From the IMG/VR virus record IMGVR_UViG_3300027708_000023: a stretch of 64,000 nucleotides of DNA. The stretch is one strand, 5' to 3'. This document shows, piece by piece, positions 20,503 to 57,700 of this stretch. This DNA is from a virus. A model generated the notes under the pieces. The model made no database searches. It saw nothing but the letters and a program-made list of their open reading frames with translations, and was not told the DNA's origin. Every line of letters begins with the position of its first letter. Positions within the stretch are counted from its first letter, which is position 1. The position numbers were made by a program, and so were the translations under genes.

Positions 20503-23331
20503 ATGCCAGCTTTAACTACTATTCAGCTCAGAAGAGGATCATCAAGCCTATGGGCAGCTTCTAATAGCCCACTAGCTCAAGGAGAGCTTGGCTACGATAC
20601 AACAATTAAAAAATTTAAGATAGGCGATGGCACTAGTCTCTGGGGAAGTTTATCTTGGGCAAATATTACCGGAGCTGATTTTGTAGGAACTAGTGGTATA
20701 AATGTATCTTATGCTTCAACTTCAGGAACAATAACAGTATCAGTTACTGGATTAAGTTCTAGCTATCTTAGCGATTTTAATAGCGCAGTTAGCGGACTAC
20801 TTCCAGTAAAGAGCATTATTGCCGGAAATAATATTACTATAACTCCAACAGGAGATAAAGGTTTTGTTATTAGTTCGCCTGTTAATTCTGATACTGTTAA
20901 AGATCTAATTGGATCTACAATTACTGGAGTAAGTGGAATTAAAGCCAGCTACGACAATACTGGTAAGGTAGAAACAATCTCGGTTACTGGACTAACTAGT
21001 TCTTATATTGGAGATTTTAATACTAGTGTTAGTGGATTGGTAAGCGGAGTATATGCTCCACTAAATAGTCCAGCATTGACTGGAACTCCAACAGCTCCAA
21101 CTGCTGCTGCTGATACGAACACAACACAAATTGCTAGTACAGCATTTGTTATTGGACAAGCTTCTTCAAGCAATCCTTTAATGAACGGAACTGCTGCTGT
21201 CGGAACTTCCAAAAAATATTCGAGAGAAGATCACGTTCATCCAACAGATACAACAAGAGCAGCATTGGCTGGAGCAGCTTTTACAGGATCAGTTAGTATT
21301 CCAAGTGGAACTGGTAATTTTAATACTTTAACTGTTGGTAATACGGCAGTTAGTTTGAATGGACATACTCATACAAGCTCTAATATTACTGATTTTAACA
21401 CAGCAGTAAGTGGACTATTAGGCGTGAAGAGTCTAGTTCAAGGCTCTGGAATTGGTATTGTTAGTGTTTCTGGTAATCATACTGTTAGTGTGACTGGTAT
21501 TCCAACATCTTTAATTACTAACTTTGCTAGTGGCGTTAATGCTCTTATTGATAATGCTGTTAGCGCAAGTATTGTTGGTGGTAGCGGTGTTGATATCGTA
21601 TATAGTAGTGGAACTAATACTCTTACAATTAGTAGCTCTTTAACAGCTGGTAGTGGTATATCTTTAACACATAATAGCGGTAATTATGTTATTAGTTTAA
21701 GTGATCCTACTATTCAACTAGCAGAGATTACAGATCTTTCAGCTAACGCTAGAACCTTTTTACTAACACCAAGTAGTAACAATCTCTCAACTCTTGTTAG
21801 CGATGAAACTGGATCAGGCAATTTAGTATTTTCTAATAGTCCCACGCTTGTTTCTCCAAACATCGGAGTAGCAACAGGTACGTCTTTTAATAGTATCACC
21901 GGTCTAAGTAGCTCAACTCCGTTGATGGACAGTATCGCAGCAGTGGGTACTGCAACAACAGCAGCTCGTGCTGACCACGTTCATCCAACAGACACCAGTC
22001 GCGCTGCTGTAGCAGGAACCTTAGCTCAGTTTGCTTCGACAACATCTTCACAACTAGCTGGAGTTATTAGTGATGAAACAGGAACAGGATCATTAGTATT
22101 TGCAAATAATCCCACACTGAGTGGAGTGACCATTAATGGTAATCTTACTGTTGGTGGTAGTGGTTTAGTTGCTAGTAATATTAATGACTTCAATACTGCT
22201 GTAAGAACCAATCGTTTGGATCAAATGAGTGTTCCTACAAGTGACGTATCCTTCAATAGTGTTAAGATTACTAGTTTAGCAGATCCGGTTAGTGCTCAAG
22301 ATGCTGCCACAAAAGCATACGTAGATGCTGCCCGAATGGGTCTTGATGTTAAAGCAAGTGTTAGAGTTGCTACAACAGCCAATATAACACTATCTGGAAC
22401 CCAAACTGTTGACGGGGTTACCGTTATAGCTGGCGATAGAGTATTAGTAAAGAATCAGAATACTGGTAGTCAAAATGGTATCTATACGGTAGCTGCTGGT
22501 TCTTGGAGTAGAGCATCCGACGCTGATTCTGATGCTGAAGTTACTACTGGACTATTTACTTTCGTGTCTGAAGGTACTGTTAATGCTGATAGTGGGTGGG
22601 TATTGACAACAAACGACACCATCACTCTCGGCACAACCAGCCTAGCATTTGCTCAATTCTCCGGGGCAGGTCAGATAACCGCCGGTGCTGGTTTAACAAA
22701 GAATGGAAATACTATAGATGCTGTTGGTACAGCTGGTCGTATAGTTGTTAATGCTGATAATATTGATCTTGATACTGTAACGCTTGCTCGCGCTGTTAGC
22801 AGTCTCCCAGCCGGAGCGACCTCTGCTCAAGCAGTAGTTTCTAGTGTAACTACAGATTCTTATGGTCGAGTAACAGGAATTATTGACAGCTATATACTTA
22901 ACGCTTCAACACAGGATAAAGGTCTTGCTAGTTTTGATAGTGGAGATTTTAGTGTTTCTTCTGGCGTCGTAAGTATCAAAGCTAGTGGTGTCGATAATTC
23001 TCAATTAGCTAACAGCTCTGTAACTATTGGTTCAACATCAGTTAGTCTTGGAGGAAGCATCACTTCTGTATCAGGACTAAGTAGTGTTAGTAGCACGTCA
23101 TTTGTTGGTGATCTTAGTGGTACAGCTACTAATGCCAATAATATTGAAGTTGATCTTAGTAGTTCTAATACTAATAATTTAGTTTTTGTTAATGGTACAG
23201 ATGGTAATCTTAAACCAAGCGTCAATAATAATCTCCGATTTAATGCATCTGCCAATGAGCTTTTGGGTTCATCAAATACCACACCAGCAACAACATTGAA
23301 ATACTTTATTATAGATGGTGGAACACCATAA
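20503..23331 (+). CDS. Tail/head fibre protein (Mtd-N-like N-terminus)
   Basis: IQLRRG..W..N..LAQGELGYDT..FKIGDG; HTH/DHVH motifs; DAATKAYVD; VRVATTANITLSG...RVLVKNQ. Confidence 0.85.
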   Translation: MPALTTIQLRRGSSSLWAASNSPLAQGELGYDTTIKKFKIGDGTSLWGSLSWANITGADFVGTSGINVSYASTSGTITVSVTGLSSSYLSDFNSAVSGLLPVKSIIAGNNITITPTGDKGFVISSPVNSDTVKDLIGSTITGVSGIKASYDNTGKVETISVTGLTSSYIGDFNTSVSGLVSGVYAPLNSPALTGTPTAPTAAADTNTTQIASTAFVIGQASSSNPLMNGTAAVGTSKKYSREDHVHPTDTTRAALAGAAFTGSVSIPSGTGNFNTLTVGNTAVSLNGHTHTSSNITDFNTAVSGLLGVKSLVQGSGIGIVSVSGNHTVSVTGIPTSLITNFASGVNALIDNAVSASIVGGSGVDIVYSSGTNTLTISSSLTAGSGISLTHNSGNYVISLSDPTIQLAEITDLSANARTFLLTPSSNNLSTLVSDETGSGNLVFSNSPTLVSPNIGVATGTSFNSITGLSSSTPLMDSIAAVGTATTAARADHVHPTDTSRAAVAGTLAQFASTTSSQLAGVISDETGTGSLVFANNPTLSGVTINGNLTVGGSGLVASNINDFNTAVRTNRLDQMSVPTSDVSFNSVKITSLADPVSAQDAATKAYVDAARMGLDVKASVRVATTANITLSGTQTVDGVTVIAGDRVLVKNQNTGSQNGIYTVAAGSWSRASDADSDAEVTTGLFTFVSEGTVNADSGWVLTTNDTITLGTTSLAFAQFSGAGQITAGAGLTKNGNTIDAVGTAGRIVVNADNIDLDTVTLARAVSSLPAGATSAQAVVSSVTTDSYGRVTGIIDSYILNASTQDKGLASFDSGDFSVSSGVVSIKASGVDNSQLANSSVTIGSTSVSLGGSITSVSGLSSVSSTSFVGDLSGTATNANNIEVDLSSSNTNNLVFVNGTDGNLKPSVNNNLRFNASANELLGSSNTTPATTLKYFIIDGGTP

Positions 23332-36712: not shown

Positions 36713-39700
36713 ATGGCAGCATTTAATTTAACAGCACAACTAAATCTCAAGGGACCATCTAATATTGGATCAATAGTATCCAGTATTAAAAATCAACTTG
36801 GGAATATCAATACTACAGTTAAGTTTACTCTTGATCCTAATGCGGCCAAGAATGTATCACAGTTGGATGCCTCTTTAAAATCTCTTAATCAAACATTTAA
36901 AGACACCCAAGTATCAGCAACAGCGGCAGCAACGGCCGTATCCAAATTTACTTCAGCCATGAGCCAGGGTAATTCTGTTAGTCAATATAGTAATCAATTA
37001 AACCAAGCCAACCAAGCTGCTAAAAATCTATCTAGTACTCAAGCAGCGACATCTCAAGCAATACAAGAATCTTCTTCTAGTATGCAAGAGTTCGGCAAGC
37101 AAGCTGGTTTGGCGGTAAGAAGATTTGCTGCATTTAGCAGTGTTACAAGTGTTATTTATGGACTAGTTAGTGCTGTTGGTAAAGGAACATCAGAATTTAT
37201 CTCTTTTGATAAAGAGTTTGTTAAACTACAGCAAGTTACTGGAGAAAGTGCTGAAGGATTAAAATCTTTGGGCAGAGTAATTACTAGTTTATCTGCTGGT
37301 CTTGGAACATCATCAGCAGAGTTGGTGGATATTGCTTCTACATTAGCACAGGCAGGCTTGAGTGCTAGAGATACAGAAAAAGCCCTTAAAGCATTAGCAT
37401 TAAGTTCGCTAGCTCCATCTTTTGATAGCATGAATGAAACGGTCGAAGGATCTATTGCTTTGATGAGACAGTTTGATATTAGTGCTAGCGACCTGGAAAA
37501 AGCACTCGGCGCGGTCAACTCAGTAGCTGCTAAGTTTGCTGTAGAAGCCAGCGACATTATTACTGCCATTCAAAGAACCGGTGGTGTGTTTGCTACAGCA
37601 AGCAAAGGAGTTAGTGAAGGAACAGACGCTCTAAATGAATTTATTGCAGTATTTACTAGCGTACGAGCCACAACTCGTGAAAGCGCAGAAACTATTGCAA
37701 CAGGTTTAAGAACAATATTTACTAGAATTCAAAGAGAAAGTACTATTGATGCTCTTAAGGAATATGGAGTTAATCTACAAAATCTTGACGGTAAATTTGT
37801 TGGAGCTTATAAATCGGTAGAATTACTTTCTCAAGGACTATCAAGATTAGACCCTAGAGATGTTAAATTTTCCAAAATCATTGAAGAACTTGGTGGTTTC
37901 CGACAGATTGGCAAAGTTATCCCTTTGATCCAAGAATTCTCTACTGCACAACAAGCATTGTCGGTTGCTCAACAGGGACAAGGCTCGCTAGCCACAGATG
38001 CTGCCAAAGCACAACTATCATTAGCTAATCAAATTGCCAAAACAAGAGAAGAATTTTTAGCACTATTCAGAGATATAGGATCGTCTAATACTTTTCAAAC
38101 AATGGTTACTGGAGCTTTGCAGCTAACAAGCGCCTTAATCAAGGTTGTCGGGGCTGCTAAAGGCTTGCTACCAATGTTTACTGCCATTGCTGCTGTACAA
38201 GGAGCCAAAGCAATATCCCGATTTGCCGGAGGATTATATGAAGGACTATCTGGTGGAGGTAAAGATTCTTCAAAGAAAGGATTTGCTACCGGAGGTTTGG
38301 TTCCTGGAGTAGGAGATAGTGATAGTGTTCCGGCAATGCTTACTCCCGGAGAGTTTGTTGTTCGTAAAGCAGCCGTAAAAGCTATGGGCGTTAATAAATT
38401 ACATAGCATGAATAAATATGGTAGTGGTGGGAAAATAGAAACCTTTACAGTGGAGCAGTTGGCAAAAGCAGGTGGTCCCGAGACTATTTTTGAATTTGCT
38501 AAAAAGAAAAAAGACATAGAACTAGATGATAAAGTTACTGGTAAAATTAATAAAATAGAACCAAATCTTGGGCCAAAAGATTTTAAAGAAATTATTAGTA
38601 GATCTGAAGCTATTGCTAATGAGTCTGCTGGAGGAAAAAGCTCATATAGAGATTTAGAACTAACCCAAGAAAATAAACAAAATTATCTAGATGTTTATTT
38701 TGGTAAGGGTTCTAATAAAAGAAAATGGAATCCACAAGCAAGCCTATGGAAAAGCGCAGAAAAGAGGTGGGGATCAGCTTTTGAAGACTATATTGTAGCT
38801 CATTCAGACGATCAGTTAGAATCTGTTGCAGGAGGCAATTTCCCTATTGATGTTAGAAGAAAAAGAGGCAAAGCCCCCGCAGAAGTTAAATTTAGATCTG
38901 TTGAAGAAGAACCAGAGACTTTAATTAGTAAATTATTTAGATATAAGATCAAATCATCAGAACAAAAATTACTATCTCAATTTACAGAAGCAAGAAAAGA
39001 TAAAATAGATGATATTCAAGTAGGAAATATTGATTATTATCGTGCAGCAGAATCTAAACATAAATTTTATGAGTATTTATTTGATCATCCTGATGCTTAT
39101 CAGAAATTTGCAGATGGTGGCTGGGTTAAAAGAATGCAGCAGCAACCCATTAATAAACTTAAAGACGAACTAGGATTACTTGATTCTACATTGGAGTTAT
39201 TTGGTTTTCAAAGAAAGGTTCCAATTAGCACATTCAGTAAATCGGCCCCTTTCATGGAAGATGCTGGGAAAAAAGAAGTTAAAGAAAGAATAGACGCGAT
39301 CCAAAAGTTCCTAGCTGCTAAAGAACCACAAAAGGGAAAAGAAGTTGAGAAAGAAATAACTTTACCAAAAGCTCCATCTAACATTTCAGATCATCTTAAA
39401 TCGTTAATTGCAGAAAATAAAACATATGAAATAACAAGAGGAGTTTATGGGGGTGTTGTTAAACAAGCATTAAATGAAGCATATAGGGGAAATTTGGGTC
39501 CTGGTAATAAACAAGAAAATATAGATAAGGTTGGACCAAAAAGTATAGTTAGATACAATCCAGACAGAGAATACGTTGATGTTCCTTTGAGCGTGTTAGA
39601 AAATGATGTCAAATATATTGATAAAGTTAAAAGTTTAGAAGGTAGAGATGTTGAAAATCTAACTGCTAATAAAGGCTATAGCGTTAGTGATATGCTAGAT

Positions 39701-42700
39701 ACTATTAGAGCATATCAGGCAATAGGCTTAGACGGAGCTCTTAATCCCGCTTTGGGTAGAAAAGAAGATTTAAGTCAGTCATTAGCTGATGTAGCAGGTT
39801 TGAATAAGACAAAAAGAAAAAAACTTGGACCAGCAGTAGATCAGCCATTGTCTTATTTTGCTGGATCATTAGATGCTGCTATGCAATTTTCATTACCAGA
39901 AAAATTATATAGTGGTATAGGAGCTAGTAAGCAAAAACTATTTATAGAATCAGCTGGCGTAAAAATTAATAAACTAGAAGATACCAAAAAACTAGTTGGA
40001 AAAACTGTCAGTATACCTTCTTTCTTATCTACTTCAGAAGTGCCAGCCACAGCAGAAAGCTTTGCAAGAACAGGCATGATGACAATAGAAACAAACAAAA
40101 AAAGCAAAGGATTAAGTCCAGAAAGAGCTAAGACAGAAACAATTAACAGAGACAAATCAAAAACAAGAAAAATAGACCAGAGACTTATCTCTGATTCTTA
40201 CGGTAAGGGCAAAGCCGATGAAAATTATGCTGACGATTATGATATTGAATCAGAATATATTCTACCAAGAAATTCTCAATTTAAAGTAAAAAATATAGAG
40301 GCTAACGATAATAGTACAGAAGGTGGAAATCTTCTTGAATCGCTCAATATGGATTGGGCTGTAAAAATGTTAAGCCGTGGAGGGAAAGCACAAAAATTTG
40401 CAGACGGTGGAGTAGCTCAACGAAAAGTTGGATATATTGATTATGACGTTATTGCTAATCCTGATAATGAAGCCGTTGTCAAGAAGGGTATGGAAGCCAC
40501 CGGAATGACCGGTCCTAGACTGTATACTGATCATTTAACACAGCTAGCAATACAAGCAAGAAAAGAAAGTAGTCTAGATAAATTAAGAGCAATATATGGT
40601 GTTGCTGGTAGTGGTAAAACAACACTAGCAAGAGGCCAAGGAACAGATAGTGGAACTTTAAGACAAACTGAAAGATTCCCAATATTATCTCCAGAAGATA
40701 TTCAAAGAGCTACTGAGGTTTTAGTTTTAAGTAGTAGTGTTTCAAAAGATAAATTAGATAACGTTTTTGGAGAGACAGACAGAACATATACTTTAAGCTC
40801 TACTACTAAAGAGGAAAGAGAAGGAGTTAGATCTCGTAGAGTTGGAAGAGACATTAGTGGTATAGGTTTAGAAAATCGTAAACCTGGATCCACAACCAAT
40901 GTTGCAACAGATACCGCTGTCAGTGAAGCTTTATTATCAGACAGACTTGGTAATAGATCTACTGTTTTAGGTCGCTCTGAGAGTGGCAGATTACGCAGAA
41001 AACAGGGAGATGAACTGGTTGATGTGGTTAAAAAGAAAATAGGATTTACATGGGGAGGTTATTCTCCAATGACCGCTGGTCATGAAAGTATTCTGGATGC
41101 GGCAGCCGCAATGGGCATACCCCCAGAAGATTTCATTTATATGGTTGGATCCAACGAAGGAATAGTCCCTGGAAAAGAGCAATCCTATAGAACAGCAATA
41201 TTTGATCAAGATACTAGAGTTTTATTGGCAAAAGCTGGTGCTGGTGCTCGTGGAGCCACTGTGCTTCCAAAACCAAGAGACTTTGAAGTTCCTCAAGCTT
41301 TCGACCTCTCTGAACCAGGAGAACGCCGCAAAGTATTAGTACCAGCTAAAGGTAGCACAACATTTGTGGCTGATAAAGATCCAAAAGAAACAGAAAAATA
41401 TAAAACAGCTGGATATAAAGTTAAGAATATAGAGAGAACTGGTGGTATTAGTGGAACGATGGTTCGTGACCTTATAAAAGAAGGCAATCTTGGAGAATTA
41501 CAAAAGGTATTGAGTCCTGGAGTTTATGATCTAATTTCGAGAAATATAGGGAGAATTCAGAACAGAAGTAAAATACTTCCTTCAATCATAGAAGAAGTCA
41601 AACAAACACAAGGCGTTAAATTAGCTGATATAGAACAACAAATTAAAACTGTAGGTATTTCCAGAATAGATAATAAAAAAGCAGAAACCGATCCAGAATA
41701 TGCTGCAAAAGTTGAGGCCCTCAAGGAGTTAAGAGAAAAAAGAGATAATATCAAATCATCAGCATCATTTGAACCACACAAACTATTAGCCGCACTAGCT
41801 GTCAAACAACCAGAAAAATATGGTTTGGATTTGAGCACAACATTGGATGATGTTTCCGCTCCTATGCGTACGATGTCTTTCGGTGCAGTTCAAAGATTTT
41901 TGGATGGTGGTTGGGTACAACGAATGCAGTCTCAAAAGAAATCCACCCTCAAAGAAGATCTTAAATTTTTACAGTCTGCGATGGTATTTTCTGACGAAAC
42001 AGGCTCGTATGTCCCAACTTATGCTAAAGAAAATGAAAAAGAAGTTGTTGATGCTAAAGAAATGTTGGAACGATATAATGCGATGTCTCAGTTTATCACA
42101 GGCCCCCGTTCGGCTAAATCTGCTCTAAAACCAACAGGAGGATATAATTCTCAAGAATTATTAGATGCTGTTACCTATTATCAGGCTGGTTCTGGACCAC
42201 TCACAAGAGCTATGGTTAATAATGACTTTATTTTCACAGACAGAAATGAAGCTTACGATACTGAAGATTTAGTAGGAAGACTAAGCGCAGCTAGCCAATA
42301 TAAATTGCCCAAAAAACTATATAGTGGTTTGGGAAGAGGTCAATTTAATGAAATACTAAAAGATACAAATATTTCTCCAGACGATTTAATTGGTCAAACC
42401 TCCAAATCTATTGAGAGTATGATTGGCAAAACAGTTGACTTTCCAACTTTCTTATCTGCTTCTGTAAACCCAAACATGGCAGAAGGATTCGTTGGAGATC
42501 CCGGATCATTATTTTCTATAGATTCTAGTAAGTCTAAGTCTTTGGGAATAGATATATTGAAAGCCAAAGGAACATCTCCTACAGATGCATCTCCAACATC
42601 TCGTAGATTACCAGGATTAGATAAAATCAAACAGCATAAAATTGCTGGTTATGACCAAGAAAAAGAATTTGTATTACAACCCAATAGTCAATTTAAAATC

Positions 42701-45700
42701 TTAAAAGCTAGTGGGAATATATCAGAAGATCTTAAAGAAAAATTATCAGGAATTAAAAAGAAGAAAGAGCAAAAGTCCTTCGCTGCTAAATCAGATACCG
42801 GAGAAGAATTTACAGTTTATGAACCAGACTTTGAAGCTGGAATATCTGAAATTTTAAATGAAAAAAGCAGAATAAATATTCAGGCCCAAATGCTCTCATT
42901 AGGAGGTAAAGCTCAAAGATTTTCTGAGGGAGGAAGAACACTGAGTCCATTACTTCAGTCAATATATGATTCTATGAAAGATAAGCCAGAATGGCTAAAA
43001 GAGTTTGGACTCCCAGATAGTGTAACAACCGATGTCCCTGCAAAAACCATAGCCCAATTATATTCTGGAAAAAATTTTCCTACAGATCCATCTTTGGGTA
43101 TGTTTGCTGGCAAACCCATTAGCATAGATAATGTTAATGCCGTATGGAGAAAATCGTTTGCCTCATCAATGACTCCAGAAAAAACAGCAAACTATACCGC
43201 AGCTAAAAATTACTTAGCTCAAGAGCTAAAAGATGATACTACAGAACAAACAAAATTAACAATTAGAGATGTTAATAAGTCTACTAAATTAGGAATAGTA
43301 GGATTACAGCCAACAGATAAAAAAGAAATCCAGGGACCGATGAAACTTGGCGATAAAAATGTTACATTGTTTATTGCTGGATTATCTTCTGAATATGATA
43401 CAGCAGTAAAGAATATGAGACGTGGAGTTGAGGGAGTAGTTAATCAATTTGGTTCTGATATTCAAGACACAAAAATTTTCGGCTCTAGTGAAAAATATGC
43501 TTTTGATTTTGATGAAACTTTAGTTACTGGCGCTGATATTGTAGATGCTAATGGCAATCCAGACATTCCAAAATATAGTGATTTTGAAGCCGTTAGAGAA
43601 TCTATGAAAAATGCAGAACTAACTCAATTAGGCAAAAAACTCAAAAAATTAATAGCTCAAGATCCTTCTTTCCTTAAAAAATCTAGAATTTTAACTGCAA
43701 GACCACAAGAAACAGCTGGAATACTAGCTGAAACTTTACAAAGACTGGAACTACCATTCCAAGTATCTGATATTACTGGAGTATCCAAGCCAATAGGAGA
43801 AAGCAAATTAGATATAGCTGATGAAACAACTAAACGTATTAATAATACTACTATAGCAAAAGCTAAAGCTCAAGACGTTAAACAACTAGAAGCCCTAATT
43901 GACGATAATTTACAAAATGTTACCGAAACCAGAAAAGCTGGGAAAAAAGCATTTCACTATACAGAACTAAAGGATTTGACCCAAGAAGAAAAATCCGCTA
44001 GTGGATTTCCCAATATAGAAGGGGCAATCACACAATCTGTTATGACTGTGATGGGAGCTACTGGAGGATTGATCCAGAATGGAGCAGTAGATTACGAGAA
44101 CGGCCTAGGCCCTGCTGCTCAATATTTTCCTGGAATAGGTTCTGATTGGCCAACAGAAGTTAAGAGAACACTAGACTCTAATGCCATTTCTGATGCTAAA
44201 AAAGAATTTACAAGATACTATAAAGAGAATGGAAATAAAGGTATTCTTGCTCAAGCATTTGCTGATGGTGGACTTGCTGAAACTCCCCAAAAAGAAAAAG
44301 AATACGGTAAAATTAGTATCACTATGGCTACCGGAGGAAAAGTAAACAAGCACCTCGAACAATACAGACAAGTTTTGAGTAGCATACTACCTCCCGAGAT
44401 GCTTACCGAAGATGGTATGTTGAAAATGCCGTCGGGAGAAGGAAAAAGTATCCATATCACACCCCCTGTCCAGAAAACTCTTTTTCAAAAATTGGGTTTG
44501 GCATCTTATGACTCGGGTAAGGCTTATTACTCTGGTGGATTAGACTATAAATCATTAAGACATTTATTAAACAAAAGAAGATCAGAGCTTCCCCCAATAG
44601 AGGCAGAAGGTTTAGATAAATTCATTTCCCAAAATCTTGCATTTATAGGCAATGAAGACGAGATATCTTTAAGAGGAGCCAAGCACAAAGGAGTACTAGC
44701 TCACGAAACATTCCATGATATTCAAGGATTTTTATATGACAATCATCCAAAAATTATGGATAAACTAATATCATCAGTAGGCTCTGAAAAGGATAATATT
44801 GAGAGATGGTATAAAGATCCAACAAATAAAAAATTCACAGAAAAAGGGAATTATCAGTTTAAGCAACTATTTCCAGACTCGTCTAGTAATAGTCCTTATG
44901 GTACGGATCTGGGAGACTCAGCCAGATCAGCTGTAACTAAAGCAAAAAGGTTCAAAGGAGATAAGACGATATCGAGCGATCATCTCCTTTCTTTATTAAT
45001 AGACAATCAAAAACAATTAGGAGCAAATGAAACTGTTCCGGTTTTATTAGGTGCAGCATCAGAAGGAAATAAACAGGCTGCTGAAATTTTATCAAAAGTT
45101 TTTGAAAATGCTGGATTAAAACCAGATTTTATGGATACGCTACCCAAATTTGCTGCTGGAGGAATGGTTCCTGGTGTTGGAAATGGTGATACTGTACCAG
45201 CTATGCTTAATGTTGGAGATTTCGTTATAAGAAAGAGTAGCGTAAACTCTATTGGTCCAGATAAACTAGCATCTATGGCGGGATATGCTGCCGGAGGCTC
45301 GGTATCCGACAAGGTACCAGCCCTCTTGACTCCCGGAGAATTTGTCTTCTCCAAGACTGCTGCTCAAAAAATAGGATATCCTAAATTACACTCAATGAAT
45401 AAGGTAGGTAAATTTGCAAGTGGTGGAGCTGTTGGTTTACGAGTAGGTTATGCTGATGGTGGAGCAATTCAGGATCTTGGTAAGTTTTTATCTGTTGTAT
45501 CTTCGATGCTGAATAGTATTCCAACTAGAGCTATGAGTATCAGACCGAATACTATTGATAGCTCAACTACGAAAATAAACGATAGTAGTACTATAGATGC
45601 TTTAAGCTTATTAGGTAAAGCACTTGAGAATGTGGGAGTAAAAACATCAGAAACTGCGGCCCTAGTTAAGCGTGGTGGAGATATTAGTTACAAAGCAACC

Positions 45701-48700
45701 ATAGATGCTATGGAAGCAGATCTTGAAAGAGCGAAAATTGCGGGATTATCTTCTAAGCAAATCATAGCTCTGGAAGACGTTATCAAATTAACTAGAGAAA
45801 AATCAACTCAGGCTGTTGCAAATAAACAATTTTTAGAAAAATCTTTTAGCAATTCTGATACGGGGAAAAAGCTAGGATCAGGAGCAGCTCAACAGGCCAT
45901 TTTGACCAAGGCATCAGAACTAGAACCAAAAATTAGAGAAAATACAGAGTACTCTAATAGATTAAGTCTTATGGGTTCGGGTTTAAGTTCACAGCAGATA
46001 GCAGCAACAGCCAAGTCTATGACCGATACTCCAGAATCAAGAGAAAAAATTAAATCTAAATCCATAATTGCTGCTACAGAAGAGGTAACAGGAGTTGATC
46101 GTAAAGAATTTACTAAACAACATCTGGAAGCTTCGGACATACAGCAATATATTGCTCAATCAATGCTTGATCGTAAAACTTTGACACAAATGGATCGTCA
46201 AGTACTAGCGGACAAAATGGACGAATTACAAAGAACAAAAGCATTTAAGCAAGCAAGCTTTGAAGAACAAAAGAAAATGCTTGATCAGATCAGAGCACAA
46301 GCAAAACAAGAAACCTCACAAAGAAGAGAGGTCCTTGATCCAATTGCTAAAGAAAAAGGACTGCCAGGACTTAAAGAAGGAAGTATACCTCAATCACTAT
46401 CAGGCATTTTTTCTAGTAAAGCAGGACTTGCAGGATTAGGACTTTTGGCAACAGCGCCTGGGTTAATCGAAGCCTTTGGACCATCAGCAAAAACTTCTAG
46501 TAGTGCTTCTTTTATGGGAGGATTAAGAGGTGCTGGAGAGACAGCCTCTGCAGGACTAACATTAGCTGGACAGTTACCAGGAGCCGCTGGCCCCATCCTC
46601 GCTGCTACAGCTATTGCTACACTTGCTAGTGCTGCCATAAAAGCAAGAAATGCGTTTATCGAATTTGAAAAGAATTTAGCAAATAGACAACTAGAAGTAT
46701 CATTAAGTAATTTACAACAATTATTTGCAGAGCTAGCTAAAGATACGAAAGATATAAGGATTCAAAATCAAATTTCTTCAGAAATACAAAAAGGAGCAGG
46801 TAATGTCAGCAGATTAGAACAGATAGATTCAAGTTTCCCTAAAGCTTTTTTCGCTAATGGCTTGGATGCTCTATTCGCCAGTAGGGACTCAAGAGATAAA
46901 GGTACCGCTAATGGAACTCAGGCCTCTTCGGACAGATCTAAAATCCTAGAGAAATTCGGAACAGCTGCCTATTACCGATCTACCGGTTTTGGTCAGGCAA
47001 ATTTTGGACTTAATGCTATTGGGGCAGATGCTAGAGCGGATAAAAATCGTAAAATGTATTTAGAAATGATGGCTCCAGAAGAAGCCCAAGAAAGAGCAAA
47101 GAGATCTTCAGCACTCTCTGAATCTTCTCAAGCATTCATTCTTAACAAAGCCAAGTCTGGCAAGACTGCTACAGAAATTTCTAAGGAGCCAGATTATGAA
47201 GTATTGGCAAGAAATATTGCTTTAGCTAATAATGCAGTACAAGAACAAATATTGGCAATAGAGAGGTCCAATCTTGTAAATAAAGAAGCCGCTAAAACTT
47301 CCATTATTAGACAATATGCAGAAGAGCAACTTATAAAAATCACCAGACAAGCACAGCAAGAGAGAGCAATGGAACTCTCAGAAAGAGCTGGTAGACAGTT
47401 TTCTATGAGTTTTGATAGAATGTTTGCTAATATGAACCAATCTATCATGTCAACAAATAATTCTTTAGATATTTTTAGTGATAGACTAGACTCTTCTATT
47501 AATGCTTTCGGTGGTCAAGCCTCCATAGGTAAAACCAACCTAGATACTATTAATACCCTAAAAACCCCAAATATCTCATCATCAGCCAGTTTTGCTTCTG
47601 CTGCATCAACTGGTTCTTCTTTATTTGGAACAGAGAATAAGCTGGTTGAATCCATACTGGTTCTTGGTAGAGATTTAGAATCTTCATTAATGAGCACAAT
47701 TAATAAGACAATACAGACTAATCCCAGAGCTTCAGATACCAAAATTTCTTCAGACATAGAAAATAGCATTAATAATTTATTAGGTAAATCTAATCTGCCT
47801 CCTGATTTAACAGCTCAATTATCTAAGAGCATTGGTATCGGGATCACAGAAATAAGACGCAAAGAAGGAGAAGGGACCAAAGATAGGAAAATTGATTTTG
47901 CAGAACTACTTAGAGCTATTCCTGGATTAAAAGACACAGTAGATGCTTTAAAAACAACAAATAATAGTGTTATAGCTTCTCTAGAAAATTATCAGACAGT
48001 ATTAGATAAATTCACCCAAAAATTAGAAATGAGTAGTGAAAAATTAAGAGAAGCTGCTGAGAGAAGATTTAAGGCAGACGATATTGTTATTGATAGCTCT
48101 ATACAATTAGCAAAAACTTTTGGCTCTGATATAAATCCAGCTCTTGGCAATGTTCTAAGAAACCAAAGAACATCTCGCATGACCGGAGGAGTTACGGATC
48201 CTAATGATCTTTTAGTTCAAATTAATCAACTTCAATCTCGTTCTACTAATCAAAGAGATAATCTTAATGAACTTAAAAACAGATCAATCGGGCAGCCAGG
48301 AGCCATTAATGCGATTATAGATAATGAAAAAGCACTATCTAGAACAAACTATCAATTAAATCAAACATATACAGCACTAAAGAACTTGGCAGATAGTGGC
48401 GATGCAGCATCTAATGCTCTTAGCGCTATTCAAGCTGCTCAACAAAAACAGGCAGGCAAAGTTTCATTAATTGAAAAATTAGTTGGTAGTGCTCCTGATG
48501 AATTGGATACTTTTAATAGAGCACTTGTTAGGTTACAAAGAACAGCAGGAGGAGAAAGACTTTATCAAACAGCAGATCAGAGAAAAGAAATATTATCTGT
48601 ATTGAATGATATTACTCCTTTGATGGGAAGTAACCAAGAAGCACATAATTTTAAAGCTAATACCTTAGAGAATTTACTTCAAACTAGTGGAATAGGTTTA

Positions 48701-51700
48701 AATCCACAATTTCAATCTATTATTAACTCTATCAGAAATCCAGAAGCAGATCCAGCGGTTAAGCAAGCCACAGAAGAGTATAAGAATGCTGTACAGGTTC
48801 AATCAGAAGCCAATAGAGCAATAGCAGAACTTAATACAAATATTTCAACTAAATTAGTAGAAGATATGTCCAAGGCTCTCAAAGACTCTATAACAAATAC
48901 TAGAGTTAAGTTTGATGAAGGACAAATTAAAGATATAGTAGCTGGGATCAGAAGTGCAACAACGGTTGTGGCTCCTGGAGCCCCTGTTGCTAGAGCCTCT
49001 GGCGGTATTATATATTCTGCTGCTGGTTCTTATGTGGATTTTCAGCCACAGGGCACTGATACTGTACCAGCGATGCTAACTCCTGGCGAGTTTGTTATGA
49101 GCAAACCTGCTGTGGATAGGATTGGTTCTGGAACTTTAAGCAGAATGAATAAAGGATATAGTAATGGAGGACAAGTATCATACTATGCTGATGGTGGATA
49201 TGTTAGTTCGCTATTACAAAATAAATATGTGGACAGATCAACCGGGGAGCCTCTAATAAGAAAAACAGGAACATTTAGTATTGATAATGGAACTCAAAAT
49301 TATCCCAACTTATCTGAAGAGTTTACAACAGGCAGCTTGAATACCTTTAAAAATTTACAAATATTACCTAGTTTTGGAGCTGGTACAGCTTCAGGACAGA
49401 TAGATAGTTCAGGCAAAAAAAATGAAACCCATACAATTGGTTATTCTGATCAGCCCAACTTAGGATATGGAGTTCCACCTAGTGCTACATATCTAGCATG
49501 GTTTTTTAGCCAGAAAGAAGAGAAGAATAGAGGAGCATATAAATATACAGAACCAGCAGGAGCAGGGACCCCTTCTATTGTTCCTCTTGGTGTATTTTTA
49601 TCGCCAGGAACTACTACTAAAAGCATACTAGATGAAAAACCTTTGATATTTGATGGTCCAGAATTAGAAGCAAAAAAGAAATTTGAACAATATATTGAAA
49701 AATTGACAGAAGTTAATAGATTATTGCCAACAAAGATTGAACAAAAAAATGATGCATATGATATTTCTGTAGGTGCTGCTAATTTTAATATTCCATCTCC
49801 AGATAGTATTAATAATGCAATAAAAGAATTTCCTTCAGTGAGTACAACAGGAAAACCTGGCGAATTTTCAATAAAAGGTATGTCTAAACCAGTCAGCGGA
49901 TATGTTGGACTATATTCAGATCGCTCTTCTGGTCTACCAACCGTAGATGGTCTTTTGGGGAATTTAGGCGCTGGACACAGTGAAGAAAATCTTCCTGATA
50001 TAGTATTGCAAAGACTCGGTAAAGATATTATGGGTATTTCACCACAGACCCGAGGAACTTCAAATACGAATGGATTTACTGGAGCAGGGAAAAAGTCTGA
50101 ATATGATTATTCTGTAACTCCACCCAAAATAGTAGATTATGGACTTTCAAAAAGTTTCATGGATGGATGGATTAGTGGTTTAGGTAAAAAGCCCCAAACC
50201 ATAAAGTTACCAGGATCTGATATGTCTAGCTTAGTATCTCTAAGACAAAAAATTACAGGAGAAAAATACATAAATGATCTTAAAAATAAAAAACTAACAG
50301 CCAAGGAGGCAGAATACGAAGCAGTCATTGCAAAAAAACTCAAGAGAATATCAGATAAGACAGAAAGTTCTGTAGATATAAATAATGATTATTTTGATTT
50401 GAAAAAACTTGGTTCTGATAGTGATAGTGTTAATGTTTTTAGCATATCTACTGGAGAATGGCCTCCATATGTTAAAATGCTACAACAATCAATAAATAAT
50501 TCCAAAAATAAAGAAACTTTAGAAAAACTATCTTATTATGGTAAAGATCCAACTAAACTACCATTCGATGTATGGCCAGAAGGAGATTTTACCAAACTCC
50601 AACAGTTTGGATGGATGGACAGTGGACTGGAATTTGACAAAGCAACCGCTGCCCAAGTAACAAGAAAGGTAGAAGATAGAGCTAAACAAGCTAACCCAGA
50701 TATTATAGAGAATAGTATTACTGGCAAGATAAAACTTAATGATCCCCAATTAGAATTACCTTATAGATTAAATTATTCTCAGAATAATAAACCAACATGG
50801 TGGGATACCAAAACAAATAGCAAATCTGGCAAACCTATTGTAGACGGATTTGATTCCTTATATCTATTGAATGCAGGAGGAGAAACAGCAGGCGCTAAGG
50901 GGTCAACAGATAATATATTACAATTATTAAATACTGGAGACAAAAGACTATTTGCTACATCAAATGGATTAGAAAAATATATCCCAGATCAGCTATCTGA
51001 ACAGATAAATAATGATCCCAAGTTACTAGCATATTTAAAATCTGCTATGGCTAATGGATATGATAGTAAAGAAACACAAACATTAGAGAGATCTAATTTA
51101 GATGGTCTATTCAAACTAAAATTAAATAAAAACCTATTAGGATTATTAACAAAAGCAGATGCCCCAGGAGGATTTGGAGATCAATTTAAAGAAACTGGGG
51201 ATATTTTTAGTGGAGATATTCAATTTTTCTTAAGAGACTATATCGTAGAAACTGCTAAAAAACTTAGTTCTGATAAAAAAGCAACACAATTAACAGATAG
51301 CAAGAAAAAATTTGGTAATAGTAGAGATACTAGTAAATTAGTAGGATTTGATGAAGGCCAAGAGTTCGCTGGTGCTTCACTAGCATTAGTTCTGGGAGCA
51401 GAAGAACTATTCGGTTCAGGTGGTGAGTTTGAGCTTCCAGGAATATTACCACAAAATTGGTTTAAGCCAATGCTACCAACTCAATTTAACAGCATATATG
51501 ATATGCCACAAGGTTTAATTAGAGAGGGTATGGGCAGATTAGGTTCTTGGTTAAGTGATGCTTCTGGTAGAGTAGAAAAATATATAACTCCAGAAATGGC
51601 CCAAAGAGACCCACGACAGTACGATAAGATAATAAGAGCACAAACATACATGAGAGGCGCTCTGTCTGCTTTTTCAAGTTTTGAGAAAGAAGCTACGGGT

Positions 51701-54700
51701 GAGGTCAAAAGATTTTTTGATCCGGACCTATTTAAAGGACCTCCAACACCAAATGGAAATCCGGCAGCTATTAAACAAGCCATAGACATGTTTCAATCAT
51801 TAGAAACTAATAATAAGTCATCATCTTTTAGTATTAATGATAAGAGTGCTGGGAGTAATCCATATTTTGCCGCCATGGATAAAGCAGCTTTAACTCCAGA
51901 TAAAAGAAACAGAGTATCTGAGGACCTAAAAGGATCTAAAATAGATAAGAGTAGCAATAATAAGGACACAATTGATCTACAAGAATTCAATCCTCTCGAT
52001 CTAGATAATGCATCATATAGAAATATATTTACATATGCTTTAAATCCGTATAATCAATATACAAATAGAGATATTCGAGCTAAGTTTTTTGATGAATTTA
52101 TTACCAGGATTCCAACAGCAACAAGAAGTAACGGGGCCCCATTATTTAGTGTAACTGAAGGTGCCAGATATGGTGGTGCTCTTAAATCTCTAAAGTCTTG
52201 GTTCGGAGGTAAGGGTAATGATGATGCTATGATACCAGTAAAAGCCAATAAAGACTGGGAAGGAATAGACTATCTGTATGATCAAACAGCCAACAAAACA
52301 GTTTCTTTTGGCGACAGACTAACAAGTCTCGATAATTCTTTAGCTCCTAATTTTTATGATGCAAACAAGTATGCGTTTGATTTTGTTGGTGGCACAGGCA
52401 TGTTCGGAGAACTACCAGATTTAAGCAACTATGAAAAAAGAAAAGTAGAATATAAAAATCAAGGAGGATTAATATACGCTAGCCAAGGTCAGCTTATTAA
52501 TTTTGAACCAAAGGGCACTGATACGATTCCTGCAATGTTAAGTCCTGGAGAATTTGTTGTTAATAGCGGAGCAACAGCACGAAACCTTCCCCTGCTAAAT
52601 TCTATTAATAAAAACAAGGGAGGAAAAATAGGATACTATAAAGATGGGGGTGTTGTAGATAATGAATCATTGTCACTATTAATGACACAAATGAAAATTA
52701 CTGAAAAACTATCTTCTTCTCAAAAAAGTATTTCTGATAGTAGTTCATCAGACTTAGCATCTCCATTACTCAGAATATCTAATGATAATGAAATTATCTC
52801 TATTGGCATATTACAAAGCATATTAAAAACTCTAGAAGATATTAAAGACTCTACACTAACTTGTTGCACAGGCAAAGATATTGGCAAGCCTCTTGATATA
52901 GCCACAACTTTACCATCACAGGTAAGGCCAGTTGCTCCTTTAGATATAAAACCGCCTGTTACAGCTGAGGAGGGCATTACTGAAGGATTCTCTCCACCAA
53001 TACCTCCTATTCCACTCCCGGATCTTCCAATACCAAATAAGCCAGATTTTGAGCCAATTCCGTTTCCAGAAGTTGAGCCTATTGTGCCAGAAATGCCCAC
53101 AATGCCGGAAATGCCTCTTCCTGATGTTAGAGAACCAATCTCAACTCCGGAAGACATACGACCAAAAACTATGCCACAAATGCCAGTTATGCCTCAGCCA
53201 GAGGTTGTATTACCAAAGAAACCAGCTTACACAGAACCATTTCCTGTTGAGAATTTTTCACCTAGTTTACTTCCAGGTTTTCCCAAAAACCCAACAGCCC
53301 CAACCTATGAGAACGGACCAACAGGAATCGATAGTCCATTTTTTGATCCAAATTCTTTACCCGATAGAAAAAAACCCCTCACTATCAGCAAAGTTGCGAA
53401 AGAAGCAGATATTACTCGCCAAGAAGCGATCACAGGCAGAGAAAAAACAGATCTCGATACTTCAAAATCAGAAGACATTATTAAAGAATCAGAAGCTCGC
53501 AGGGCTTATAATAGAGAAACACAAACAGCTCAATCTGCCCGCGCAGGAAATGTTCTATCTTCTGGTATTAGTCGAGCTAATGGAGCTATTACTGCAATTA
53601 AAGGTGCTCAAGAAATTAAAGAAGCAGGAACTTCCTATGATGCTTTTAGGGGTGGATTAAGTGTAGTCGATGGAATAGGAGACTTAGCAGGCGCTTCTGC
53701 TCCCCCATTAGCTGCTGCTGGTGACGCTGCTGGTTTAACTCGTAATAGTTTAGATTTCTATAATAATCCTGAGACTCGTTTACAAAGCGGTTTAGGTATT
53801 GCTAACGATGCAACTTCATTAACTCTAAGAGCTGCTCAAACAACCTCTCTTATGGCTCCAGCAGGAAGCTTGGCTAGTCAAATAGCAGCCCCTCTAGGAG
53901 CCGTAGGAGGCGTGGCAGAACTTGGCAGAGGCGCTGTTGCTGGTGCTTATGATACTAGTAACGAAGCAAAATTAAGAACAGCAGTAGAAAACATTATTAT
54001 AGGAGCAGCAACAGGAGATGCTACAACAGGAGGTTCTAGTTTAGCTGGTGCTGCTAATGCTTTTGGGGCAAATATTCAGCAGGGAGGTATGGTAGATACT
54101 CAATTAGCGGCAGGAGAATCATCGCTACGCTTAGCGGGTATCGGAGCAACTTTGGGTACTTTTGTTGCGCCGGGTCCCGGAACAGCTATTGGTGGAGCTG
54201 GTGGGGCAGTTGTGGGCGCAGGAGCAGAGCTATACAAATCTGGTTCCGCATACGCCAGAGAATCTGCACAAGCCCAACAGCTACAAGTTAGAACTGACCA
54301 GATGGTTAAGTCCAGCAAAACACAAGAGTATGTGACTGGATCAGACGGTACTGTCACAAAACAATCAAAAAATCCAGACAGCTTTAATTTTGGTTTAGAT
54401 GCTCAAGAATCAAGTCTGGTCAGATCCATAGCCACCCTCACTGCTCAAATTTCTTCTCTTAGACAGCTAGAAGAGAAAGGACAAATGCAGGTTGAAGAAA
54501 AACCAATACGCGATGCTATTGCAGAAAAAGAACAAACACTATATGCTCAAAGATCTGGATTAAAGGAGCTTGCAACACAAAAAACTAATGATGAAAATAC
54601 AACCTTTTTTAGACTTGGACCAGATAGTCCAATTGTCAAAGAGAAATTAGATAAATATCAGTCTTTGGTGGGCAGAGCCATAGAAGAACTAGGATCTAGT

Positions 54701-57700
54701 TTATCTGATAATATTAAACCAGAATCATTACCTCCTCTAGAGGTTGAGCCACAAACGAGTCTTATTGCTGCGAAACACAAAGCTATTGGTGGAGTTGTTT
54801 ATGCTAGTATGGGAGCATTATTTTCTCCCAAGGGTACAGACACTATTCCTGCTATGCTAAGTCCCGGAGAATTTGTAGTAAATAGCCAAGCAACACAAAA
54901 TAATTTACCATTACTACAGGCAATGAATAGTGGGAATAGTACTATTTATAGATCCACAGGATCAAAAAATCCCGAAGGTGGTATAAAATTTGGTCCTAAT
55001 AAGCCAATCCTTCAAGCTATTGATGAATTAGAACAGTCCGGACATTTAGAAGAAGCTACATTGAATAATATTTCAAAGTATTTTGGAGGTGGTGAGGCAC
55101 CCAAATCTAAAATAGTAGACTATAGTGGTGTCCTCAAAAATCGAGAATATAGACGAACACAAAAAGAGGCTAGAGAAGTTGGAAGCACTTCTCTTTTTAA
55201 TCCCCAGGGCTCCAACAGCTTTGTTTTTAGTCTTAGTGAAAGAAAGAAATACCCTAATGCTGGGCAGTATGTTAGAGAGCTTGGATATCCAAGGCACAAA
55301 AAGTGGGAAGATATTTTAAATAATGCACCAGGAACAAATATTACAGAAAAATTATCAACACTTGTTGATTCAGATCTTAATTATGTGGCTAGCTCGTATT
55401 TTAGCAGAGAGAGTGGTACTTATACAGAATTTTTGGATTATGTTATAGCAGCAGCTAAACAATTATCGATGGTTAAACAGAAAAAAGCAGAAAAGAAAAA
55501 ACACGAAGATTATGTTAGGGTTGTAGAAGAAGCCAATACTGGAAAACTAAGAAATTATGAGGCAGGAAATGTTAGGGGGATGGATCTACACTATAACATG
55601 CTTGGAATAGGTTCTAAAAATAGCGAAAAACAGATAGAACATCTAGATACTGAAATAAAAACCTTATTATTATCTGATATTAATCCAATAGACTTTAATA
55701 CTAGGGGTAAAGCTGAAAGAAATGATGCTGAGTCATTCTTTAAATATAGGGCTGATGCTCTCCAATCAACCGCGCCCACATATTCTAATATTTATAAAGA
55801 AGCAGCTTCTACAGAAGCAGATATTGATGATTGGTATACTGCTAGAATTTTACCACAACAGTCAAGAGACTGGACTTACACTGAAGGCAGAAAGTGGGTA
55901 GACTATTTAGGTATTCCAGAGAATAGAGATGAAGCTCTAGTTGGCGCTATTGGATTGATGACTAAAATTTTACCTGGAGTTTTAGGAGTAGCTGGGGCTG
56001 GACTAGGCTTTGTTTTAGGAGGCGGCCCCACCCCTATAGGTTTTGGTACTGCTGCTGTTGGTGGATTGGGTGGAACATTGGCAGGAGAAGGACTTAATTG
56101 GGCCATTGCACAAGGAATATCTGCGATATTGCCCGAAGATATGATGGAGTCTATAAAAGAAAAAATAAAGAAACATCCAGAAAACTATGAAGCTGGAAGA
56201 TGGGTCGGTTTTGGTGGTGAATTGCTTGGTGGAACATTATATGCGGAACCTATAGAAAGATTGGTACATAGAGGTGTTGGTCAATTTATGGCCAAAAGAG
56301 GTATGGCTGGCGCAGAGCATCACTTGACGCATAGTGTAGATATGCACGCTGTACAAGAAAATATGACAAAACAATTAGGGAAAAAAGCCTATGAAGCATC
56401 TACCAAAGAAGGACCTTATGCAGCTGTTGTTCGTTCTGAAAAGATAGCACCACCAACGACAAATGGATCTTTGGCTTTGGAAAGTCCTCTGGTGCCGGGA
56501 GCCAAGGGAACAACAAGATATCGCCCAGTTACTTCGGGGGGAAGCAGCATACCAGAGCAACTTGCCCTTTTTAAAGAGAATCTAAAAACCGCAATTAAAA
56601 AGTATGTTGATAATAGAGGAAAAGTGGAGATATTTGAAAATGGACAGCAAACTTTTCAATCCGTAACAGCTCAAAAAATGTTAGATGATTTTGGTATGGT
56701 CTTTTCTAAGGCTCCTTTATCGGTATTCGACGATAATAGTGCAAAGTTTTTACAAGAAGCATTGACATCCAAGCCCGAGCTTTATGCTAGCTTAAAAGAA
56801 GCAATAAATAATAGCCCAATAAGTGGATTCTCTTCTCAATTAGATAATGCATTATCTAATAAACCTAATACTCAATGGTCAGAAGCTTTGACGAAGATAA
56901 GAGAGGCTCTAGAGGAAAAAATTAAACTAAAAGGAATATTACCGCCGGAAGAAGCGGCCAGATCTGCAGAAACTAGTTTTCAAGAAATACTTACTCAGGC
57001 AGGAATCAGTTCTCCTCGATCTGCTGGCGCTTCTGTTAGTAATTTTGAATTACCCAACTTACCCGGTCAGACTTTAGGATTAGTAAGACAAGAGTATCTG
57101 AAGGATGCTGTAGTTAAAAAAACGTCTGAATTAGGTAGTCTTCGTATGACCCTGGCAAGAGCTATTCACACAATAGGAGAAAAGTGGAAAGAAGAAGGCT
57201 TAATAAGTTTTATGGAAAAACAGATGCACCACTATCTTGTGCCACACAAGCATGACCATGATCATGGTGATGAACATGGTGAGGCACATGGTGCCGAACA
57301 TGGTGGTGGACATGGTGCCGAACATGGTGGTGGACATGGTGCCGAACATGGAGATACTCATGGTGACGAACATAAAGCCGCTGGTCACTATAACGGAGGA
57401 TTAATCTATGCTTCTACTGGAAAGTATATTAATTTCCAACCCAAGGGAACAGATACTGTACCAGCCATGCTTACCCCTGGTGAATTTGTAATTAATGCCA
57501 GATCGACTGCTCAACACCTACCACTATTGAAAGCTATTAATAGTGGAGCTGATGTTTCTTCACCCGATACTATGAATAAAGGAGGTGTGGTATATTTGGT
57601 TGGAGGAGGAAGAGCCCCTTCAGGAGCAACCCCAGCTGGCAAACAAGCAATACCTGTACCATTAACAAGACAACAAAGAGTCAATAGAGTTAACGACATA

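Follow-up and report, generated by a model that had tools for sequence, protein, structure and literature searches.

ADP-ribosyltransferases (ARTs) of the C3/VIP2 type, among them C3, VIP2, iota Ia, CDTa, and BECa (PF03496), are secreted toxin subunits of the R-S-E class, and the Arg on strand beta-1 is one of the three residues for which this class is named. Reviews treat this residue as needed for NAD+ binding—in canonical enzymes it positions NAD+ and is important for both NAD binding and catalysis (PMC7827354, PMC8120803), and Arg295 of iota toxin is important for ADP-ribosyl transfer (PMC10747272). Here, we describe two ART modules that lie within a single giant, tape-measure-like open reading frame (ORF) of a virus (IMG/VR record IMGVR_UViG_3300027708_000023; the 64,000 nucleotides analysed are hereafter “the window”) and that, according to profile alignments, carry a Ser at the position of this Arg. 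The two copies differ from the toxins in three respects: Ser in place of the beta-1 Arg, an insertion of ~30 amino acids (aa) between the STS motif and the ARTT loop, and their position as internal modules of a tape measure rather than as secreted subunits. A clade that retains every other catalytic element and has a small residue for the Arg makes both the contribution of that Arg and its replacement testable.

Enzymatic motifs used during entry are carried by the tape measures of mycobacteriophage TM4 and T5 (Pb2), and the known tape-measure enzymes are cell-wall hydrolases that act in the envelope, not cytoplasmic NAD+-dependent modifiers. Among phage ARTs, T4 Alt is similar in being carried by the virion and delivered at infection to modify host proteins, a route of delivery that we infer for the present modules; it differs in being a separate 682-aa protein of the phage particle with an R-S-E site, and the match of our family profile to it, limited to the STS region, was not significant (E 0.089). 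Polyvalent proteins (Iyer et al. 2017, PMC5512222) are likewise very long, multi-effector polypeptides that are believed to enter the cell along with the DNA, and one of their modules is metallopeptidase-like and could cut the effectors apart; the giant ORF has an HExxH motif. Their carrier and cargo are different, however: the carrier here is a PF10145 tape measure and the ART is of VIP2/C3 type, and Alt/VIP2-type ARTs are excluded from the genuine polyvalent proteins (PMC5512222). Measured against that group, the giant ORF contains two ART domains, with its other putative activities visible as short motifs only (P-loop plus HxGH, DxDxT, and HExxH) and no significant Pfam match to them. Closer in layout are the MuF-ART and portal-ART fusions, in which an ART is also joined to a virion structural protein for co-delivery (PMC9503650); these are head-packaged, C-terminal fusions, and the comparison is one of architecture. 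A literature search for “tape measure” together with ADP-ribosyltransferase, or together with polyvalent proteins, found no co-occurrence in the titles or abstracts of the papers it returned, and a review of jumbo phages names the tape measure once, in another context. Toxin-type ARTs as linker-bounded cargo of 2,000–8,000-aa tape measures are unreported in the literature searched, and they would carry the concept of polyvalent effectors injected by the phage over from head to tail.

The interval that contains both ARTs (39107-42919) falls entirely within the giant ORF on the + strand, and all motifs listed by an earlier note on this DNA were recovered, residue for residue, in the frame of that ORF, with AGT as the codon of both Ser residues. 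The features are as follows.

36713..60295, + strand: giant ORF, a tape-measure-like polyprotein of 7,860 aa that holds both cassettes and several other modules (from the ORF list and translation)
39107..40396, + strand: cassette 1 (aa 799-1228), consisting of the leader FADGGWVKRMQ, a region of ~190 aa, the ART domain, and a closing GG linker
39674..40384, + strand: ART catalytic domain of cassette 1 (aa 988-1224)
39911..39913, + strand: Ser1067 in LYSG, codon AGT, predicted at the canonical beta-1 Arg position (profile alignments, strand of the model)
40028..40036, + strand: S-T-S motif of cassette 1 (aa 1106-1108), aligned to STT/STS of solved ARTs
40232..40255, + strand: ARTT loop D-D-Y-D-I-E-S-E of cassette 1 (aa 1174-1181), with E1179 and E1181
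40367..40417, + strand: GG linker MLSRGGKAQKFADGG closing cassette 1 (aa 1219-1235)
41897..42919, + strand: cassette 2 (aa 1729-2069), consisting of the leader FLDGGWVQRMQ, a short N-terminal region, the ART domain, and a closing GG linker
42137..42907, + strand: ART domain of cassette 2 (aa 1809-2065), paralogue of that of cassette 1
42323..42325, + strand: Ser1871 in LYSG, codon AGT, predicted at the canonical beta-1 Arg position (Pfam profile position 78)
42455..42463, + strand: S-A-S variant of the STS motif, cassette 2 (aa 1915-1917)
42644..42667, + strand: ARTT loop A-G-Y-D-Q-E-K-E of cassette 2 (aa 1978-1985), with E1983 and E1985
42890-42940, + strand: GG linker of the same type closing cassette 2

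The two cassettes are clearly paralogues, as had been proposed, with a sequence likeness far above chance: their ART cores are 31% identical across 163 aa (BLASTP, E 1e-15) and their leaders 35% across 71 aa (E 9e-9). Of the leader motif F.DGGWV.RMQ there are exactly two copies, at aa 799 and 1729, and the closing motif ML S.GGKAQ.F..GG lies at aa 1219 and 2060. Between these ends, LYSG starts at aa 1065 in cassette 1 and aa 1869 in cassette 2, FLSTS at aa 1104 and its counterpart FLSAS at aa 1913, and the Glu-pair motif is ESEYILPRNSQFKV at aa 1179 (E-S-E, 1179-1181) and EKEFVLQPNSQFKI at aa 1983 (E-K-E, 1983-1985). The description of the pair as ART cassettes needs some qualification—an ART is present in both, but they are modules of one ORF rather than separate genes, and in each the ART domain is confined to the C-terminal ~240-260 aa. 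The front half of cassette 1 (aa 799-987) had no Pfam match and only sub-threshold Atlas matches, with no family assignable. A third LYSG, at aa 2116, was considered as an ART site and set aside as coincidental, with no ART motifs around it.

The carrier resembles a tape measure in several ways. Its N-terminus matches PF10145 (PhageMin_Tail; aa 193-394, E 9e-22), and ORFs upstream of it have PHROG matches to portal, head-decoration, and tail-fibre families, which together place 36713-60295 in the structural module of a tailed phage, at the position expected of a tape-measure gene. Homologues of the giant ORF are proteins of 5,198-7,794 aa with PF10145, one of them annotated by its source as “TP901 family phage tail tape measure protein.” The present protein, with its 7,860 aa, is far above the usual size of a tape measure.

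Assignment of the cassettes to the ART superfamily draws on sequence profiles for both and on a structural model for one. Cassette 1 scores above the gathering threshold of PF03496 (ADPrib_exo_Tox; 27.3-28.4 bits against a threshold of 23.4), and the same profile matched all 13 family members scanned (best E 1.5e-8), five of which matched PF01129 as well. Searches of the PDB with single sequences returned nothing for cassette 1 or cassette 2. The top matches of a 24-sequence family profile were ARTs only—Lmo0066 (4e-6), BECa (1.6e-5), C3cer (2.3e-5), and Vis (1.2e-4). AlphaFold, run on the cassette-1 domain (39674-40384) with the 24-sequence alignment, produced a model with a pLDDT of 80.9 and a pTM of 0.78, superseding a run on a truncated domain with a four-sequence alignment that had been useless (pLDDT 39). 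The model shows the ART core, a split beta-sheet with an N-terminal helical region; its top PDB matches in Foldseek, starting at E 5e-9, were without exception C3-like or binary-toxin ARTs (CDTa, iota Ia, C3, VIP2, and SpvB), and its best viral structural matches (BFVD) were phage ARTs, models of ModA/ModB, and MuF-ART fusions. An ART fold of the C3/VIP2/iota type is thus predicted for cassette 1 with good confidence; the earlier note had made its proposal depend on such a fold.

Most of the catalytic elements of this fold are also in place. The family alignment retains an invariant Tyr and, 8-10 residues further on, an Asn in the helix that precedes beta-1. The hydrophobic-S-T-S motif of beta-2 is found in a GK..F.STS strand, which reads FLSTS in cassette 1 and FLSAS in cassette 2 (first and third Ser kept), and the ARTT loop, defined as X-X-aromatic-X-X-E/Q-X-E (PMC7827354), reads DDYDIESE and AGYDQEKE, respectively. 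Across an alignment of 13 family sequences, Y14, S119, S121, E192, and E194 (domain numbering) are invariant. The aromatic-Arg motif of beta-1 that defines the R-S-E class is absent, its column being occupied by Ser1067 and Ser1871. Judged from sequence, then, the ART domains of both cassettes are probable members of the C3/VIP2/Alt-type fold and of the PF03496 family that have dispensed with one of the residues defining R-S-E, the Arg.

That the Ser residues stand in for the conserved Arg, as the earlier note had claimed, is borne out by alignments to three solved ARTs and by the Pfam profile. The family profile sets LYsG over LYRG of Lmo0066, YRRM of BECa, and VYRG of C3cer, with Ser on Arg in all three, and the same alignments set FLStS over the STT/STS of the solved enzymes; the ARTT Glu pair was aligned in separate, low-scoring segments of the same PDB matches and in the alignment to Vis. 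The PF03496 match of cassette 2 begins at LYSG, on profile position 76, and that of a related fragment (P0041) begins one residue ahead of its LYRG, so that Ser1871 and the Arg of P0041 (KLYRG) both fall on profile position 78. In the cassette-1 model, LYSG comprises residues 78-81 and lies in strand 77-82. Profile alignments and the Pfam profile thus place Ser1067 and Ser1871 at the beta-1 Arg position, with the strand assignment coming from the model. One might instead suppose that the Ser is not equivalent to the Arg and that an Arg or Lys elsewhere in the domain fills the site, making these ordinary R-S-E enzymes. The equivalence is drawn from sequence profiles, and many members have basic residues 4-6 positions past the Ser (SGIGASK, SGLGRG, SGIGENR). 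These downstream residues vary in position, however, and one member (SAISSVAFD) has none; furthermore, the three independent profile alignments and the Pfam profile agree in a shared hydrophobic-aromatic-R/S-G context, and family-proximal sequences have an actual Arg in the same column (KLYRG in P0041, NLYRG in P0029). We regard misalignment as very improbable.

To see how widely the substitution is shared, 1.84 billion representative proteins were searched with a profile, which yielded 53 proteins, nearly all of 2,000-8,000 aa; nearly all members of the family are modules of tape-measure-like proteins of this size from metagenomic phages, with conserved GG linkers at their borders. Among the 64 homologous domain instances that cover the Arg column, 51 have Ser, six Ala, two Thr, and two Arg, with His, Lys, and Gln occurring once each. 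Wherever the alignment extends over these motifs, every domain retains STS or a close variant of it and all but one retain ExE, the exception being P0050, which reads D-x-E. This is the survey of YSG against YRG that the earlier note had called for, and its outcome is that the Ser is not a sporadic change. At the 21 loci with DNA, the codon is AGT in 13, AGC in one, TCT in five, and ACT (Thr) in two. AGY Ser codons are a single step from the AGR codons of Arg, whereas a switch between the two Ser codon families must pass through another residue, Thr being one possible route; Ser from both families, together with the Thr intermediates seen here, fits long-standing selection for a small residue at this position.

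Selection and phylogeny point in the same direction. The ratio of nonsynonymous to synonymous substitution rates (dN/dS) among five orthologues of cassette 1 is 0.10-0.29, showing purifying selection on the cassette-1 lineage. In a FastTree phylogeny of 44 domains, with Arg-column states taken from the 64-domain alignment, cassettes 1 and 2 fall in separate clades (support of 0.91 and 1.0, respectively), each with orthologues in giant proteins of other phages, and deeper branches also have a small residue in the column, which is Ser in most cases, Ala in some, and His in one. The separate clades and the small residues on deeper branches indicate that loss of the Arg is older than the duplication of the cassettes. 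On this comparative evidence, Y-[S/A/T]-[G/S] reads as the ancestral, selected state of the whole module clade and not as a lesion, and the earlier proposal of a variant ART subfamily as opposed to random decay holds up well.

Constraint of this kind need not mean catalysis, and the fold could have been kept as a non-catalytic binder or decoy, whether for a host target, for a signal derived from ADP-ribose, or in a structural role within the tape measure. Vertebrate ART3 and ART4, which depart from R-S-EXE and are regarded as inactive, offer a parallel to the clade-wide loss of the NAD-positioning Arg, and cassette 2 has both S-A-S for S-T-S and a post-STS loop without a basic residue. A binder, though, would need none of the Glu pair, the two Ser of STS, the ARTT aromatic, or the upstream Tyr, all of which are kept at 25-35% overall identity, and the dN/dS of 0.1-0.3 indicates constraint, though it is no proof of catalysis. 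We find a pseudoenzyme improbable, if less so than a misalignment.

Our favoured reading, held with moderate confidence, is that the cassettes are catalytically competent early effectors delivered by the tape measure, with a remodelled phosphate pocket and a probable preference for arginine. The ExE motif, which by a rule in the literature indicates Arg-specific transfer (PMC3102197), suggests arginine as the probable acceptor. The tape-measure protein would exit the virion through the tail at infection; modules lying between the conserved GG linkers, possibly freed by proteolysis, would then fold inside the host and serve as early effectors there, modifying its proteins by ADP-ribosylation, probably at arginine residues, with NAD+ held by the remaining residues of the site or with the help of a partner.

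Several observations weigh against this reading. Taken alone, cassette 2 scores below the PF03496 threshold (16.6 bits, E 0.005), so that the Pfam assignment does not extend to it by itself; the fold model covers the cassette-1 domain only, with cassette 2 placed by sequence. No conserved basic residue that might substitute for the lost Arg was identified in the family sequences. C3 and iota have a second phosphate-binding Arg in the loop after STS; cassette 1 has this Arg (FART) and cassette 2 lacks it (FVGDPG). Finally, given the importance of the Arg in canonical enzymes, full activity without it would be unusual.

The same fold and site might instead serve another chemistry, with a phosphate pocket reshaped by the small residue: a different donor (NADP+, NAD-capped RNA, or another dinucleotide), mainly NAD+ glycohydrolysis, or a site that depends on a host factor or a neighbouring module to contribute a basic residue in trans. 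Of the canonical elements, only the one that positions the phosphates of NAD+ has changed, and it has done so throughout the clade; moreover, Ala is tolerated in six of the 64 domains, from which it seems that small size, and not a hydroxyl, is what has been selected. Composite ART sites have a conceptual precedent in HPF1-PARP1/2 (PMC7827354), and T4 ModB uses NAD-capped RNA, according to work cited in PMC9503650. A candidate neighbour also exists, as a module with P-loop and HxGH motifs comes immediately after 11 of the 47 ART instances, cassette 1 included; it is absent from that place in the other 36, so there is no fixed partner, and the residues on the nicotinamide side (STS, ExE, and the aromatic Tyr) are as in ordinary NAD+-using ARTs. 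Such altered chemistry seems to us rather unlikely, although it is the strongest of the alternatives to a competent, arginine-directed transferase. More speculatively still, and to be held only tentatively, the modules might constitute a new catalytic class of ART (Y-S-G/STS/ExE), either with a host protein or another tape-measure module filling out its site in trans or with a donor other than free NAD+, and carried as the cargo of giant tape measures in an unrecognised route, as a tail-borne counterpart of the head-packaged polyvalent effectors.

The distribution of relatives is so far restricted to uncultured, metagenomic phages. A tblastn search with three family members found no match among 50,697 deposited phage genomes, nor did megablast with 10 kb of the window against deposited phage genomes, and no relatives in prokaryotes were found in a scan of one genome per species. 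The ART module of distant relatives measures only ~170 aa and has the same GG..Q.F..GG linker at either end; such compact natural modules form a set for study. Modules have evidently been shuffled among proteins, which may contain the cassette-1 type only, the cassette-2 type only, or both. A giant tape-measure-like protein of 7,794 aa (P0009; loci L016 and L024), on a 161,520-base IMG/VR contig, has two Ser-type ARTs of its own, whose positions in the tree differ from those of the window pair. Five metagenomic proteins from the profile search (P0027, P0044, P0051, P0029, and P0054) are 570-1,700 aa long and carry PF03496 domains in tandem, 3-6 per protein (95-211 bits). Y-S-G or Y-S-A is found in the Arg column of some of them, so the small-residue variant is not limited to tape-measure carriers.

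Other parts of the giant ORF also have enzyme-like motifs. The region between the two ARTs (40415-41896) contains the P-loop (GVAGSGKT) and an HxGH nucleotidyltransferase-type motif (GGYSPMTAGH); its only Pfam match is below threshold (PF16581, 22 bits against 26.7), and a sequence search of the PDB found no match. A fixed pairing of ART with this P-loop/nucleotidyltransferase module was considered and dropped, adjacency being limited to the 11 of 47 instances. After cassette 2, the segment 42935-45187 has two short motifs that suggest further enzymatic modules, one of HAD-like DxDxT type (AFDFDETL, ~aa 2262) and one of HExxH type (LAHETFHD, ~aa 2661); a Pfam scan found nothing significant in it.

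Toward the end of the protein (~57200-57400, aa ~6860-6900, and 57590-59674), a His/Gly-rich run (HGAEHGGG repeats) and an (APAG)n linker are followed by several repeats of ~120 aa with the motifs “(I)(R/Q)WP..L” and “DYG.SR(T/S)FLDSL(E/Q)(R/Q)E(Y/F)”, for which a Pfam scan found no family. An element of ~45 aa with the motif D(T/S)(V/I)PAML.PGEFV recurs in seven copies along the giant ORF (aa 537, 2826, 4116, 5270, 6043, 6914, and 7655), with an eighth, degenerate copy after the one at aa 2826; together with the GG..(Q)F..GG linkers, these elements look like module boundaries, and they might serve as protease sites or as contacts with the tail tube. Outside the giant ORF, a 942-aa ORF at 20503-23331 has PHROG matches to head-decoration, virion-structural, and tail-fibre families (E down to 1e-54), all of which fall on one central region, aa ~490-830.

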